A stretch of DNA of 57,757 nt, from contig JARDVH010000157.1 in the NCBI GenBank assembly GCA_030324005.1, forward strand, positions 25,298,444 through 25,356,200. Reading direction: 5' to 3'. The stretch is from Negaprion brevirostris (taxonomy: Eukaryota). The position numbers and the translations under genes are program-made. Numbering within the stretch: the first letter of the stretch is position 1; every line of letters starts with the position of its first letter. Shown one piece after another: positions 1,104-50,308 of this stretch. The notes beneath the pieces are model-generated. The model was not told where the DNA came from. It did no database searches and worked only from the letters and a program-made list of their open reading frames with translations.

Positions 1104-1335
1104 GAAAATAAATAAAAATGGCAAATGCTAGCAACACTCAGCATGCATCCATGGTGAGGCAAACAGCCAATGTTTCAGCTCTGTGATCTTTCTCCAGAAT
1201 TCTGATGAAAGGTTACAGACCTGAAACATTAGCTTGGTTTCTCTCCCCACGGATGCTGCCAGTCATGCTGAGTATTTTCAGCAATTTTTGTTCATTCTTC
1301 TGATTGCCAGCATTCATGGTATTTTGATTTCATAT
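1104..1335 (+). mobile_element. Palindromic Penelope-like/hammerhead-motif element, copy A
   Basis: Inverted arms around cagaa|ttctg (1195-1204); CTGATGA at 1202-1208 and GAAAC at 1223-1227; similar to copies at 5497, 38976 and 49495. Confidence 0.65.
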
Positions 1336-5496: not shown

Positions 5497-5630
5497 ATAA
5501 AAGCAAAATACTGTGGATGTTGGAAATCCGAAATAAAAACAGAGAATGCTTGTTGAACTCAGCAGGTCTAGCAGCATCAGTGGAGTGAGAAACTGAGTTA
5601 ATGTTTTGAGTCCGTATGACCCGTCTGCAG
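5497..5630 (-). mobile_element. Single-arm copy B of the palindromic Penelope-like element
   Basis: Same arm sequence as the other copies; flanked by atattag at 5490-5496 and 5631-5637. Confidence 0.65.
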
Positions 5631-35988: not shown

Positions 35989-36087
35989 CTCTGCAAGCGT
36001 ATCTTGCTTCTTGAACTGCTCATATACAATCTCTCGCAGGATTTTCAACTCCTCAAAGGTCTGTTCATCCTCAATTCGCTCCAACTC
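35989..36087 (-). CDS. VPS13D: VPS13D exon ~11 (99 nt), ELERIEDEQTFEELKILREIVYEQFKKQDTLAE
   Basis: taacag|GAG acceptor, GAG|gtcagg donor, phase 0-0. Confidence 0.95.
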
Positions 36088-36382
36088 CTGTTAATTAAAA
36101 GCAGCACAATACCAAACTACTTAGTCAGAATGAGATGAGGGGGATAGGGCCTGAAATATGATTTTACTAAGGCTTCCCTCAACCATTTCCACTTGCCTAC
36201 CACATATAAAACGAAGCATTTCATCAACTTGACAAGGTCATGAATACCAAAGCACAAAATCCTAGCAACTTTTAAAAAAAAAAATTGGTAATTATCAGGT
36301 CTTCAATGGGAGTAAATTAATTGAGATGCATAACAAGTGGTTGATCTGGTACCACCAGATCCTGCAAAGCACACCTCAAAGG

Positions 36383-36672
36383 GGATAGTTTCCTTGAACA
36401 GTGTGTGTTGGAGCCGACAAGGGAGTGAGCTATCTTGGATCTGGTGTTGTGTAATGAGGCGGGTAGAATTAGGGACCTTGTGGTGAAGGATCCTCTNNNN
36501 NNNNNNNNNNNNNNNNNNNNNNNNNNNNNNNNNNNNNNNNNNNNNNNNNNNNNNNNNNNNNNNNNNNNNNNNNNNNNNNNNNNNNNNNNNNNNNNNATGA
36601 TCTTATTGAATGGTGGGGCAGGCTCGAAGGGCTGGATGGCCTACTCCTGCTCCTATTTCTTATGTTCTTATG
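36383..36672 (+). mobile_element. Young CR1: endonuclease region and 3' tail joined across a 100-N gap
   Basis: ILDLVLCNE....RDLVVKDPL before the gap; 3' UTR matching 24450/27705 after it. Confidence 0.88.
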
Positions 36673-37118
36673 TCATCACTAGCAGTGCCATGTGCAAAGA
36701 CAGGACATTTCCATTATCCCTTCAGCAGCACTCAACAGAAATGCATCTGCATTGCACTGCTGGTAACAAGCAGATTGTCCTTCTCCGAACCAAAATAATC
36801 ACCCACATTCCAGCCCATAAAATCAACCTAATTGACAATGAATGCTGGGGAGTTCAATGTGTTGGCCAAGTCCCCCTTTATCCCTTACTTACACACTAAA
36901 CAAACTCATATTCCCAATGGAAGACAAACTACACCTGACAACACCAGCCCTAGCACAAACCCTCTGCCTGACATACAAGCTTCACCTCCCCTTCAAACAA
37001 ACCAACGTGTGCCCCAAGCAAGCCCCAAGCACTGTAACTGCTGTCCCTAAATTTCTAAAATATTGGAGTTGTTAAACTAATGAAATTAATGGGAAATTCC
37101 CACATAAGATTGTGTCAC

Positions 37119-37287
37119 CTCATCTTCAAAAGAATTCAGGCTTCCTTTCAGCTTATGATGGTATTTTTCCGTATACAATACAGCATCTCTTGCTCGTTGC
37201 AATAAAAACGTCCAGTTTAATCGTCTCCTCTGTTCACGGATCTCAGCGAGATTTGCATTCAGGGCGAAATTCCACCATTCCCGTGAA
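37119..37287 (-). CDS. VPS13D: VPS13D exon ~10 (169 nt), SREWWNFALNANL...SFEDE
   Basis: aaatag|T acceptor, GAG|gtgaca donor, phase 2-0; VPS13 WW motif. Confidence 0.95.
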
Positions 37288-37419
37288 CTATTTACAAGGG
37301 AAAATGAATGTATAGAATAGAATTTTACAACAACATTATCAAAGTCCTTTACCAAGAAACCTTTCAGAACGAATTCTACTTAGGCATACATAAAATATCA
37401 CAGTATCACTGCACACAAG

Positions 37420-37560
37420 GAGTGGAATTTTGAGTTTGGATGGTAGTGTAAAATAGACATTGTCAGATCTTCAATAGGAATGTAAATCTATTGAGATGCT
37501 AATGGGTGGTTGATCTGGTACGACCAGCTTTACACTACACCTCAAAGCAAAATTATATCC
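37420..37560. repeat. MITE-like imperfect inverted repeat; partial second copy at 36300-36382
   Basis: aattttgagtttggatggtagtgtaaa...gatc versus gatc...tttacactacacctcaaagcaaaatt. Confidence 0.6.
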
Positions 37561-38264
37561 CCTCCCTGGGAGTCAAGATCAAGAGTAACTTTCAGATAAT
37601 GGAGGGTTAGAAAAGAAAACGTGCCAGAACGTGCAGATGAAAAGCCATACACACTGTTGTTACTTTATGCTTTAAATTACTATGACCATTTTTGTAACAC
37701 AAACTGCCTTTGCAAATAAATCATGCTGTAGTGACACCCTCTTAATAATGGTAACATTGCAGAGGCAATTTCCACTATAATTGTGGCTATAGGAATTTAT
37801 ATGGAAAAGAAATGATGGCAAGAACATGCAGACTCAAGATAGAATAGATTGGATTGTAAAAAACTGAATTCCTCAGTGAGATGCAACAGTCAATTAGACC
37901 CAAGTGGCCATTCTGAGTAGCACAAGGCAATGAGATCTCCTCAGATGTGGTATGTTGACGGACAACTATAAGCCAGCCAGCATCAGGCACTGGCGTGCTT
38001 CATATCCTCCATCACTCCAGTCTATCCAGCCTGAAATAGCTGCCAACTTGGGATTTAAATAATAAAAACTGGAATGTAGAAGAATCTCCATAAGTAACTA
38101 CTTACCACTTGTAATCTCCAGTTATTGTTCACTACTTTTCTTTCTTCTCCCAAAGGTGCAAAACTCACACTGGAGCATAGTCCTATGAGCACCATTAGCT
38201 GTCCAGAATGAGTACTTTTATGTACACATCTAGATTATGGGTGTCAGAAAACTGTTTGACTGTG

Positions 38265-38520
38265 GGGGCATCAAAGCCAAGCCCAATCTAGGTGTCATCT
38301 GACATCCACACACTGCAGAAATTAATGGATATCAGTCAGGAAGACAAACCTTGAGTGATCTACGTCACTGCAAGTTCAAGGCAACTAAGGCCAATTTTAA
38401 AATCCTGAAGTCTGCTGTCACTGCTGAGGTCCATTAACCTCAGCATAGTCTGGCTACTGAAACTTGTATCTTCCTGGTCTATTACGGCTCAGTACTGCAG
38501 CAATGTGTTTTTATTCACAG
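38265..38520 (-). mobile_element. Ancient unidentified SINE-like family (related pieces at 6340-6480 +, 32640-32800 +, 49870-50070 -)
   Basis: Shared motifs agccaagc--aatc, gccaatt, gctgag, ctcagcatag between copies; highly diverged. Confidence 0.45.
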
Positions 38521-38975
38521 ATGACTTGTTGGATACAATGATGTTTGCAATTTGTAATTTTACAATGAAGAATCATTACACTTTACTTTTCCACAGACTT
38601 TCAATCAGCTATTTTGGTGCAATCTACGGGAGACCTGGAATATGTGTGAGCAGATCAGACAACTCTATCTCCTTAATTAGCCAATTTGAAGAATCCTTAC
38701 TAAGTCATGCAGTCCAAACTAGGAAGTATGAGCTAAAATAGTTAATTCAAAGCTTAGTCACGTATAGAAACTGAAATAAAGACAGGGAAAGAAATATGGG
38801 ATGAAGAAACAGAAATAAGAGATGGGGGGAAAGAAATATTTTTAAAAATCTCCAACGATAATTAAGGCTGAAGGAATGGGACTTTGCACCCGTAGAAGTT
38901 AATTCTCAGTGGCAGAAAGGTTGTTTGACAGTAATTAAGACTTACCATGCAGCTAAAACATTACTAATGCTGAAA

Positions 38976-39205
38976 CCAAAAGAAAAAACGCTGCAAAATC
39001 TCAGCAGGCCTAGCAGTATCTGTAAGGAGAGAAAAGAGCTGACGTTTCAAGTCCAAATGGCCCAATGCCAAAGCTTTGACAAAGGGTCATCTGGAGTCGA
39101 AACGTCAACTCTTTTCTCTCTTTACAGATGCCGCCAGACCTGCTGAGATTTTCCAGTATTTTCTCTTTTGGTTTTAGATTCCAGCAGTCACAGTAATTTG
39201 TTTTT
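38976..39205 (+). mobile_element. Palindromic Penelope-like/hammerhead-motif element, copy C
   Basis: ~100 bp inverted arms around caaag|ctttg (39069-39078); flanking direct repeat 38960-38975 / 39206-39221 (15/16). Confidence 0.75.
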
Positions 39206-39980
39206 ATTACCAATGCTGAAATGGACATGTGCTAACTTACTCTGATGATTTTGCTGGCTATTACATTAATACAGCCAAGTTCACATGTTAATGTTGAGTT
39301 TCTTGGTAAACTACNNNNNNNNNNCTGACTTCCACGTTTAATTGCGTGCGTGCAGTTGCAGTTATGTTCTTTACACTTTAAAAGCTGACAGTGCTGACGG
39401 CCTCATTGTTATATTACTGCCCGCTCCAGACCACTTCTTAAAATTTCATTACACGTTTCTGTGCTAATCAAAGAATTGAAAAGTGGTGCAATTTCTATGT
39501 TGGTGAAAGGGGTATCTAAACTGATTTTTCCGGTTGTTTTGAGAACAAAATAACTGCAGTATGTAGGAGCAGATTGTAACAATTGTAGCAGGGAGCAACA
39601 CAATTCTGTAAACCACAAGGGAAAAAGCTCAACTATCTATTGAAATCACAGACGCCTACATGAAATTACAACCTTGAAAACACTTGGGTGTTACATTTCC
39701 CCACAGTGTCGCTCACAAGCCGAGGAATGCATTTAAACTGAACAGCTCATCTTTTGTTTTCATTTGCATTTTCTTGGGACAAGGAGGCAGCATCGTACTA
39801 GTTTTGCTCATGCTTTCAAGTTTCTACACACAGATCACCACTGATGCCATTCTAAGTGTGAGAGTTAACATATTTCCTCCCCAGGGAACAAGATCACACG
39901 TGACTGCAGAAGCAGTGAAATAAGTCAATTCACTTTACTTACAGAAGTCAAAAGAAATATTAATCAGAAGGGAGATTTAC

Positions 39981-40081
39981 TTTGATTTAATGGGAACTTT
40001 CGGTCTCCATTTTCTTAGCTGGAATTGTCGCTCTTTCCTTTCTGTTTCTTTCAGGAATGTCATCAATTGCTGGTACTGTAC
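39981..40081 (-). CDS. VPS13D: VPS13D exon ~9 (101 nt), VQYQQLMTFLKETERKERQFQLRKWRPKVPIKS
   Basis: gcccag|GTA acceptor, AA|gtaaat donor, phase 0-2. Confidence 0.95.
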
Positions 40082-40269
40082 CTGGGCACACAAAAGGAGG
40101 ACACTAAAATAAGCAATCAGCTCAAAGGTATATCCAAAAGAGGTAAAAGGACTGTTTGTAAAAATGGAACACCATTCACAAGCTACATCTCTGATTTTGT
40201 TTTAAAACAGTAGATTGTACTTCACGTGAGATGTTGATCGCCACTATTACCAGGCTTTACAATTAAAAA

Positions 40270-41900
40270 CGTATTACTATGAAGCATCTTTAACATCCCA
40301 AAGGACTGATATCAAACAGACGTTAGGGCAAGTGACCAAATGTTTGGGCAGAAGGGTGGATTTTAAGGAGTCTTTTAAAGAAGAGAGGTGGGCAAAAGTG
40401 AAGAAAACTCAACAGCTTAGCACCTTGGCAGCTAAATGCATAACTGCCATGGATGGGGTGATTAAAATTGGGGATGTGCAAGACATCAGAACTGGAGGAA
40501 CACATCCATCTTGGCAAGTTATAGAGCTGGAAGATGTAGGAAGGGGTGAGGCCTTGAAAGGATTTATAAACAAGGATGAGAATTTTAAAATCAAGGCATT
40601 ACTTAACCAAGAGCCAGTGTAGGGTCAGCAAGCACAGAGATGAACATGAACGGGACTGGAGTTAAGTTATGGACTGCAAAGCTTTGGAAGAGTTTAAGTT
40701 TATGGAACATGGAAAACTGATGAAGAATACATTAAAACAGTCAAGAATGAAGATTACAAAGACATGTAATCTTTGGCAGATGAGTCTGCTGCAGGTGCAG
40801 AGTCAAGCAATTTTATGGAAATACATTTAGACGAACTTAATGATGGTGCTGTTATAGTGGAGGAAATTCCTGCTCTTCCATTACTGGATGACAGATAAGC
40901 AGTCTAACAATTTACAGCCAGTGGAGACAGCAAGAGAGGTGGTGAGTGTATCTGGCTGCCTGAGTGCTTATGCAAAACAGAAAGTTTGTTGCTTTTAGAT
41001 GAAGTCACTGAGGCACAGCATTTGGATGACGAGTAGTAGGAAGCTGATATGCCCTGGTTGTTGGTGGTGAGGCAGAGGGCTTTAGGGAATCACAGGTAAC
41101 GGTGCAGGAGTGAGAAAAAAAAAAGCTACTGCGGGTGATTCTCTTGTGTCCTACTGGATAGTTAAGAATGGGAATCAAGTGGGTCCAGTTCCATCCAGCT
41201 GGATGACAGAAGAGGCACTGGAGAAGGATTGTTCAGTCGCCCTTGTGAAAGATTGCAGACAGGTCAAGAAAGATGCAGAGGGGGAGTTTACCTTCNNNNN
41301 NNNNNNNNNNNNNNNNNNNNGGCTTTGAGCTGAGGTGTTCTGGCACAATAGGAGGGCAGAAAATCTGATTGGAGCCATTTATAAAAATGGAATTCCTAAA
41401 GATAATCACAGATTTGGGAAGTAACAGAATGGTCTAGAGCCTTGGAGAAGAAAGGACAGTTGTTTGCAAGGACAGAGGGAACATGGGATCATGGGTTGAT
41501 CTTTAGATTAGAGGTTAATAATGGTAGAGTTGAAGAGAATGGGGAGGACAACTAACAACACCAGCTAACATGGAGGCCATGAATCGAATTAGAGTAGACT
41601 GCAATTTATTGGAAATAACAGTAGAGGAAGGTGGATTTCATGGACGAGGTGAGCTTAGAGATGAGGGCATGAGGGGAGATAGGAAAGAAACTAAATAAAT
41701 ATGCACGTTCGGGATTATGCGATGGGGGATCCTTATAGGAACTTTGGCCTGGTGGGCAGCTGAATAGTTGGTCTTAATTTTAGTGACAACGCCCATAAAA
41801 TTGTTATATTTGTTGGAGGTGAAGGTGGAGGAGACAGGGAAGAGAGGTTTAAGACANNNNNNNNNNGTTTGCAGTACAGAAAAGAAAATTAGCAACTACC
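40270..41900 (-). mobile_element. Old L2-type LINE, long fragment
   Basis: Minus strand gives PILITPSMAVMHLAA (L2 C-terminal-like, frameshifted); long purine-rich + strand typical of antisense L2. Confidence 0.7.
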
Positions 41901-42648
41901 TGAGTTTTAAATACTCAGCGCAGACCCAAATGCACTTTCAACCCAGAATTATGTCCCAGGCCGAAATGGCAGGCCAGCCTTAATGCTGTCAATTCCCTAC
42001 ATGCACAAACCACCCTGCAAACAAAATTAGCCAACCAACAAAACATATCTCTAACAATACAATTCTGCTCAATCTAACCAGGATGAACAGACAGATAAAA
42101 ATTTATGCTTTCTCGCACGAGGGATGGTGTGTTATGCTACATGCTTTTAAGTCTCCATCTAACAGTTAGTATTAATCCCACTTCGGTCTTGATTTTCTTA
42201 ATTTTTCTGGTTCTCCTGCATTGCATCTATGCCATCCATCATGCATCCTTGTCACTGCATCCTCATCACATCATGTCATTTTACAGACATGGCTTCCTAG
42301 AATGTCCAACCTGGAACTCTGTCTCCCCAGTCCCTTCAAGTTACTAGTTTTAAAAGGAAAGTTTGGCATCACCTAGTTGTTACTTTTTGAGCTACCTTAT
42401 CTTTTCTCCTACTCATTAGACTTTGATCCTTCACGCATGAGGTTGTCATTTTAAGGGGTGTATATCAATGGTGTTCCTGTTGGTTACACTGTGTCACACC
42501 AAGCTCTAAGGACAATATTGCCCCATCTTTACAGCTGGGGCACAGTAACAAAGCACAGATGATGAACAGATCATCTTGCCTGTGGATATTTTAGCCAATT
42601 TTGTTAAAATTCCAAATGCTTCCCTAGTCTCTGAACTTCGTGACTTAC

Positions 42649-42819
42649 CTGTGATAGTTTTAATGGAATTGTCTTTAGCTTGACATCACACTCAATGCGT
42701 GGAGTGTTCCGGGAGCGCAAGGGTTCTTTGGTTCCATTCCTCTTTAACAGCGCAGAGGCACAGACTGGTTCCAGTATGTACTTGTGGTCTCGGTTTTCCA
42801 GGAAATAATCCATTGCTTC
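42649..42819 (-). CDS. VPS13D: VPS13D exon ~8 (171 nt), EAMDYFLENRDHKYILEPV...IPLKLSQ
   Basis: ttccag|GAA acceptor, CAG|gtaagt donor, phase 0-0. Confidence 0.96.
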
Positions 42820-49494: not shown

Positions 49495-49709
49495 GATAAA
49501 AGTAAAATTACTGTGGATGCTGGGACCTGAAACCAAAACAAAAGATACTGGAAAATCTCAGCTGGTTTGATAGCATTTGTGGAGAAAGAACACAGCTAAC
49601 ATTGAGTCTGGAAGACCCTTTGTAAGTCCAGACTTGAAACGTTGGTTCTCTTCTCTCTCCACAAATGCTGTCAGACTTGCAGAGATTTTCCAGCATCTTT
49701 TGTTTTTGC
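49495..49709 (-). mobile_element. Palindromic Penelope-like/hammerhead-motif element, copy D
   Basis: Inverted arms with a central deletion at ~49620; flanking direct repeat 49481-49494 / 49710-49723 (12/14). Confidence 0.7.
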
Positions 49710-50308
49710 TTCTATATTCTTCACTGTCCCCTGTACAAACGCAAAGTTCTCTTAAAAGTGCTGTTAAAGAAAGCCCAGTTTAAAACTGCTCAAACTACAT
49801 GGCCTAGCCATAAATTCTTAGAGATAAAATAAGTAATTTATTCTGGATTGATCCTGATTTGTATCATAGGCAGCTCAGCCAAGCTTAATCCTGTTCTCAC
49901 AGGACACCACGCATAAAAATGAACCTAATCACACAAGTCACTGGATAATGATTAGAAGCAGAAACACAAGCTTGCTGAAGCCAATTACAATACTCGACTT
50001 TTAATTCAGCTGAGATGAAAGAACTCCACAGACCACAATCTGACCTGAATTATGCCTCTAGCCACACCAGGCAATTGGAAGGATTCTAAATTTAATAGAC
50101 ATGTTTAACTCATACATATTAATCAGAAACAATGAAGGATGGTACTCCCCCCTCATATCATAAATACAGAGATACAATACTTCAGAATTAAGTCAGATTT
50201 TCAAAGGTGACTGCAGCAGAAACCAGTGTTCTGTAAACAAAAGCTTGAACTTGACTATGTTTTTATATAAAAGTGAAGACTATTATAATTACCATTTTTC
50301 CAACTCAC

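Follow-up and report, generated by a model that had tools for sequence, protein, structure and literature searches.

The insertion in the window

The window, that is, the whole stretch of 57,757 nt of Negaprion brevirostris DNA that was analysed, harbours a head-to-head (mirror-image) insertion of 238 bases composed of two back-to-back arms (Table 1). The initial annotation had recognized a palindrome with arms of about 100 bp and a 16-bp flanking repeat, and both are real. The two repeat copies agree at 15 of 16 positions; a 14-mer with ≤1 mismatch was found in 1 of 20001 random flank pairs. This repeat is likely a target-site duplication (TSD). An extension on one arm had also been noted. 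Its one-sidedness holds, but its length is 30 nt instead of about 27 bp, or 28 nt without the two bases common to the right repeat. Folded as RNA, the whole unit reaches -134 kcal/mol (z -15.7), and 0 of 200 shuffled sequences were equally good.

The unit contains neither a TATA box nor a reading frame, and both of its ribozyme cores are damaged. It is a dead by-product, and a transcript of it would form a 104-bp hairpin hiding the ribozyme. The earlier view that this copy is probably inactive stands, albeit through changes other than the one named at that time, namely the substitutions given in Table 1. In the contigs of runs X8 and X12, which come from two other organisms, both unique flanks run into the element, i.e. 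the insertion is present there, too. An empty site was looked for in contigs of other organisms and not found. Because of its presence in these two organisms and the distance of its arms from the family majority (about 7%), the insertion is regarded as old.

Table 1. Positions of the insertion, its parts and further features in the window
Feature	Position	Strand	Remarks
Left copy of 16-bp direct repeat (likely TSD)	38960..38975	+	last 6 nt also match short arm
Short arm, element positions 1-104, inverted	38970..39073	-	12 of 104 positions off family majority
Paired inverted arms	38970..39073 / 39074..39177		axis between 39073 and 39074; mismatches at 18 of 104 paired positions
Central self-complementary AGCT	39072..39075	.	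hammerhead stem I 5' strand and predicted transcription start
Long arm, element positions 1-134	39074..39207	+	10 of 134 positions off family majority
Minimal type I hammerhead	39072..39110	+	stem II disrupted by G39096, stem I by A39108 (one substitution each)
U3-A8 box	39076..39082	+	
Extra A	39083	+	
Stem II	39084..39088 / 39094..39098	+	
GAAA	39099..39102	+	
Predicted cut	after 39106	+	
Second hammerhead copy	39037..39075	-	A6, A9 and C11.1 substituted relative to family majority
30-nt PLE 'tail', positions 105-134	39178..39207	+	one arm only; tail as described in parts of PMC11167929 and PMC8557442
Right copy of 16-bp direct repeat	39206..39221	+	first 2 nt also match long arm
Splice-acceptor-like tracts (by eye)	39108..39130, 39160..39180		pyrimidine tracts ending in AG, near both end clusters
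Exon-like open frames near the insertion	38592..38732, 40770..40898, 42549..42683	+	
Sister-family palindrome	49496..49712		79% to the arm; shortened centre; tail on the long arm; short arm reaches about 102; flanked by an imperfect direct repeat of roughly 14 bp
Older sister-family solo arm	1201..1333	+	canonical C3-G8 box, different stem II
Older sister-family solo arm	5497..5622	-	

The splice-acceptor-like tracts might entail a risk of exonisation if the insertion site is intronic. Seven exon-like frames near the insertion yielded no Pfam matches.

Copies of the family

The search of the shark's own genome yielded 7181 first-look candidates, 40 of which were scored. From 59 loci selected by likeness (BLAST), 46 distinct copies were aligned after removal of duplicates. 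Over 104 nt, their majority sequence is perfectly palindromic, and its long end is fixed at position 134. Direct repeats flank 23 of the 39 gap-free copies of this likeness-selected set, compared to 0 of 150 mismatched flank pairs.

Since these copies had been chosen by their likeness to the query, additional sets were drawn. The unbiased set consists of 90 of 250 places picked by an internal 35-mer, the ORF-selected set of 30 loci picked by the endonuclease frame and the centre-selected set of 87 palindromes. The latter comprises 39 palindromes with the centre AG/CT (the slash denotes the axis) and 48 of the 58 with a shorter second centre, a nested 11-nt quasi-palindrome. Genome-wide, at least 319 AG/CT centres were found at ≤3 mismatches in 34, and the shorter centre occurs at 58 places at ≤2 mismatches in 29. 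Among the 90 arms of the unbiased set, 37 are solo arms, 26 have an inverted partner, 24 share a sequence upstream that contains a TATA box and three face an assembly gap. Such gaps often adjoin palindromes (e.g. at L026, L042, L050 and L082), so that the number of palindromes is underestimated. 

The parent element

Each arm is the ribozyme-bearing front end of a common Neptune-like Penelope element (PLE). The Penelope origin proposed initially is borne out, the arm being the pLTR end of an element with reverse transcriptase (RT) and GIY-YIG stretches. In 22 of the 30 ORF-selected loci, the arm sits 240-540 nt behind the GIY-YIG frame, and a pLTR with hammerhead follows the ORF. Four of the remaining loci end too early and one has only a distant, diverged arm. 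An inverted arm precedes a truncated frame in 8 of the 30 loci. In the ORF-selected loci, the pLTR carries a TATAAAT that starts 30 nt before the A of AG, i.e. 30 nt upstream of the central AGCT, and further upstream of this common TATA-bearing sequence, L064 has a GIY-YIG-like frame. In the other direction, the arm extends past position 134 at 23 places. One of them, L217, continues into the body of the RT-bearing copy L180. L235 has the same body continuation, and both L234 and L235 begin at AG/CT behind an inverted arm. Because the arm follows the frame and also continues into the RT-bearing body, it is the front of the element transcript and, at the same time, the terminal portion of the pLTR.

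The broken copies L180, L181 and L184 contain RT-like followed by GIY-YIG-like stretches; no intact frame was seen in them. Three of seven parent pieces gave Pfam matches, with RVT_1 at E 0.0011 and GIY-YIG at E 0.0038, both below the gathering score, and two long open frames had no Pfam match. A CCHH motif (as defined in a passage of PMC8557442) with two Cys between GIY and YIG can be seen by eye. L064, L180, L184 and L185 carry a C-x4-C-x2-C linker before the endonuclease. As a CX2-5CxxC linker is given as a mark of the Neptune and Nematis clades in a passage of PMC8557442, the parent would be Neptune-like by its linker motif.

The hammerhead motif

The initial annotation had read the parts of a hammerhead in the correct order on both strands, and these readings are present in the sequence as written. 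The assignment to the minimal type I is supported, with a U3-A8 core in which positions 3 and 8 pair. The arm starts with stem I, 33 nt upstream of the predicted cut site. A motif scan of 675 kb revealed 73 motifs, while three shuffles contained none. The Rfam scan of 36000-42000 gave no hammerhead match at E≤10 and only matches to miRNA-type hairpins below the gathering score; the former is unsurprising because the motif lacks loop 3.

The box TTGACAA on the + strand had been taken for a mutated CUGANGA. This has to be revised: it is the U3-A8 covariant of the family and not damage in the window copy. A pattern that left core positions 3, 7 and 8 free had 480 matches. Of 100 listed, 92 are U3-A8, five C3-A8, three U3-G8 and none C3-G8, and 89 contain TTGACAA. 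Among 18 diverged sister arms, 13 have T-A, four C-G and one C-A at these positions, with one C3-G8 arm in this window. In this genome, U3-A8 is therefore the covariant that prevails in a large family, and C3-G8 occurs in sister arms. In L064, a family copy without damage, stems I and II fold, with a z of only -0.5; in the window copy they do so on neither strand.

Hammerheads of metazoan PLEs as described in passages of PMC4209133 share with the motif studied here the U3-A8 core, the extra unpaired base between 9 and 10.1, i.e. before helix II, the pair G10.1-C11.1, the palindromic C-G pair 15.2-16.2, the missing loop 3 and a helix I of 4 bp. In the passages concerned, U3-A8 comes from Schistosoma, with no vertebrate among them. 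Helix II has 5 bp here versus 7-8 bp in the Schistosoma families. The same source mentions pairs of hammerheads on opposite strands at 100-700 bp, but the two motifs in our unit, unlike those hammerheads, share the stem I strand back to back. As the two cores of the unit are located on opposite strands, a tandem dimer of them is impossible. At L024:530, L215:642 and L226:2086, these insertions are adjoined by hammerheads of an unrelated family, which have canonical CTGANGA and different stems.

Ends of the copies

Among 83 gap-free arms of the unbiased set, 42 end at positions 89-110 and 33 at 132-134, which results in two end clusters about 33 nt apart. Loose ends were found at the matching window positions in contigs of three other organisms. 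In the centre-selected palindromes, the tail is present on one arm in 62 of 87 cases and on both arms in none. Their 57 gap-free short arms end at 89-105 (33 arms) or at 22-82 (24 arms), none at 106-126, and the maximum is 105. The tight cluster of short-arm ends at 97-104 in the first BLAST set is partly due to query bias, and the centre-selected sets are broader. Among the inverted copies in the unbiased set, 23 are gap-free; they carry the tail on the direct arm (13), on the inverted arm (7) or on neither (3), but never on both (Fisher p 0.0005). One double-tailed copy, L004, was found in the BLAST-selected set.

TSDs of 9-17 bp (median 13) are clear in 32 of the 87 centre-selected copies. 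Overlap of the TSD with the element appears common at the junctions on both ends, a frequency that local alignment inflates.

At the other end, 17 of 37 solo arms have the dinucleotide AG directly before position 1 and nothing in common further upstream. From these DNA ends and the spacing of the TATA box, we infer that the transcript starts at AGCU. A cap-derived G was not enriched (3 of the 17 solo arms with AG). An intron has been considered, too, as the intron of the D. virilis PLE ends at helix I, but this reading of AG/CT is disfavoured since the 17 solo arms share no exon before AG. In contigs from four runs that might represent RNA, neither a transcription start nor a spliced form was seen. 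The solo arms of L060-L149 show AAAG before position 1 in five of 37 and CCAG in four of 37 cases; these additions may stem from small fold-backs or from jumps mediated by AG microhomology.

Formation of the palindrome

Long inverted arms and a high copy number (7181 first-look candidates) would suit a DNA transposon MITE or a fold-back element. This explanation, which had already been rejected in the initial annotation, can practically be dismissed: the TSDs are 9-17 bp with a median of 13 instead of fixed and short, the ends are unequal, and the arm belongs to an RT element. The target-primed insertion assumed there is supported, as are variable TSDs.

On balance, it appears probable that both nicked target strands prime cDNA synthesis at two start sites on the RNA and that the cDNA ends anneal at AGCT. 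According to this proposal, the element RNA would start at AGCU, and the endonuclease would make staggered nicks 9-17 bp apart. The priming site on the RNA would be about +134 for one target strand and about +100, or a more 5' position, for the other. Two cDNAs extending to +1 would both end in AGCT-3', and annealing of these identical ends could yield a full palindrome as in the window copy. If one of them stops early, a partial inversion or a solo arm might result. The end statistics thereby lead to a model with sense RNA and two target strands, which makes sharp predictions for a published in vitro system. In this system, both strands are cut and extended by a PLE protein, and the two sites at which it starts bound the tail, as reported in sections of PMC11167929.

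Partial inversions were found, too. L100 combines positions 82-134 in inverted with 1-97 in direct orientation, and L060, L128 and L141 are further cases. In twin priming of L1, internal priming by the second target strand on the RNA yields a 5' inversion between the TSDs, and the arms hardly overlap. The partial inversions described here look like the products of this geometry, although later deletions in unstable palindromes could mimic them. In the palindromes, by contrast, the overlap between the arms can comprise all 104 nt, and the arms have preferred start sites. The 24 of 57 short arms that end at 22-82 instead of at the second site speak against priming on both strands; a snap-back with an early stop or a 5'-truncated master would also produce these arms. 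The double-tailed copy L004 and the discordant variant at position 17 described below are further points against it.

In such a snap-back, a single cDNA spanning +134 to +1 folds back with its 3' end, uses itself as a template over a variable length and joins the other target end. The single tail, the variable short arms, the derived bases common to both arms and the short AAAG additions before five of 37 solo arms would be well accounted for. With regard to the derived bases, the two arms of one copy share 33 compared to 22.2 ± 3.8 after shuffling (reached in 5 of 2000 shuffles), and 42 compared to 30.1 ± 4.5 in the mixed set. This fits a single source for both arms or gene conversion, and the excess also counts in favour of priming on both strands. 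A common variant at position 17 was tried as a template marker and proved uninformative. It is present in both arms of one and in one arm of six of 50 listed palindromes; this split does not support a shared template, and background mutation may explain it. On the other hand, snap-back leaves unexplained why short arms accumulate at 89-105 and never exceed 105, both in agreement with the second end cluster seen in solo and ORF-linked copies, and an incomplete tail arm combined with a complete tail-less arm would require an extra deletion. In addition, the nested hairpin should be the favoured fold, but it is found less often than the loop-less AG/CT centre (58 versus 319, at differing stringencies). 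Annealing of two ends predicts either base at the second centre, whereas folding of the tail cDNA predicts that A is always kept; among 32 cases, 19 keep A and 13 T. This mixture agrees with annealing and lowers the probability of snap-back, although slippage deletion would give such a mixture, too. The short-centre class could have been derived from the AG/CT class by such a deletion, so that the A/T split is no direct test of the latter. Altogether, we consider snap-back unlikely.

One or a few palindromes might also act as masters, which would be a weak form of the initial idea. Host promoters would drive their complete transcription, followed by re-insertion in trans with 5' truncation of the short arm. 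A full-length master would fit the ceiling and the pile-up of short arms near 100 as well as the one centre common to at least 319 copies. However, the majority sequences of the two arms are identical over 104 nt, and beyond query bias there is no diagnostic site specific to either arm. Moreover, two centres and many off-centre junctions are found, the same inverted arm caps long ORF-bearing insertions, and the unit lacks a TATA box. Exact pLTR junctions (409) outnumber exact palindrome centres (21), the palindromes being undercounted owing to adjoining gaps. Such a master is quite improbable.

Head-to-head junctions with a palindrome have been explained by self-priming on an antisense transcript for rotifer PLEs in a passage of PMC3846280. 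For the family investigated here, this published proposal is very unlikely: the solo arms begin at the position 30 nt behind the sense-strand TATA box, and the outer ends match start sites on sense RNA demonstrated in vitro for another PLE (sections of PMC11167929).

Priming on both target strands may have a wider role. It is conceivable, though rather doubtful, that convergent priming is the normal way in which PLEs integrate, with both target strands priming at two fixed sites on the RNA, and that a self-complementary 5' end of the transcript has been kept since its annealing closes the insertion without a separate second-strand step. In the family described here, this 5' end would comprise the hammerhead stem I strand and the nested 11-nt hairpin. 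If correct, convergent priming would explain the one-sided tail, the junction palindromes of rotifers and the persistence of the motif although cleavage is dispensable in vitro. The latter is known for PAc, which inserts without ribozyme cleavage in the in vitro experiments described in PMC11167929.

Relation to known systems

The layout with head-to-head pLTR, junction palindrome, one-sided tail and TSD has already been published. Insertions of EN+ PLEs (Pen2a_Av in passages of PMC3846280; others in parts of PMC8557442) share with the unit in the window the head-to-head inverted pLTR piece, the palindrome at the junction, a tail of 30-40 nt at one end, the TSD and the TATA box of the pLTR. 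In contrast to them, the direct part comprises only the first 134 nt here, so that the whole insert is a palindrome. Furthermore, the junction palindrome has 4 nt (or 11 nt when nested), and the TSDs span 9-17 bp instead of the 8-10 bp given in those passages. The origin of tandem and inverted PLE structures is called undefined in the relevant passage of PMC8557442. A literature search, which covered few subscription papers, revealed no paper proposing twin priming for PLEs.

Sections of PMC11167929 on PAc, a Poseidon element of Anolis, describe two end sites bounding the tail as in our family, and for PAc they were shown to be the sites at which RT starts. Both strands are cut and extended in this system, and the target start is of the ATT type, as the TSD in the window starts with ATT. 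PAc belongs to the Penelope/Poseidon clade and has a C3-G8 core and an AC-rich start region, whereas the parent element described here has a CX4CXXC linker and U-rich ends.

Non-LTR retrozymes, as presented in part of bioRxiv 10.64898/2026.07.22.740005, are also non-coding, derived from a PLE pLTR and equipped with a type I hammerhead. They are head-to-tail tandems with one hammerhead per unit, while the unit here is head-to-head. The initial proposal of a retrozyme-like unit had to be abandoned: the insertion is not a tandem, cleavage sites do not delimit it, one core is on the + and the other on the - strand, and the arms represent the end of an RT/GIY-YIG element. With the locus itself being an old, dead insertion, the value lies in the family as a data set.

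Among L216-L238, many copies consist of an arm with 50-250 nt of the body, joined to a short pLTR piece and a second arm ending near 100. This structure resembles template jumping into partial tandems.
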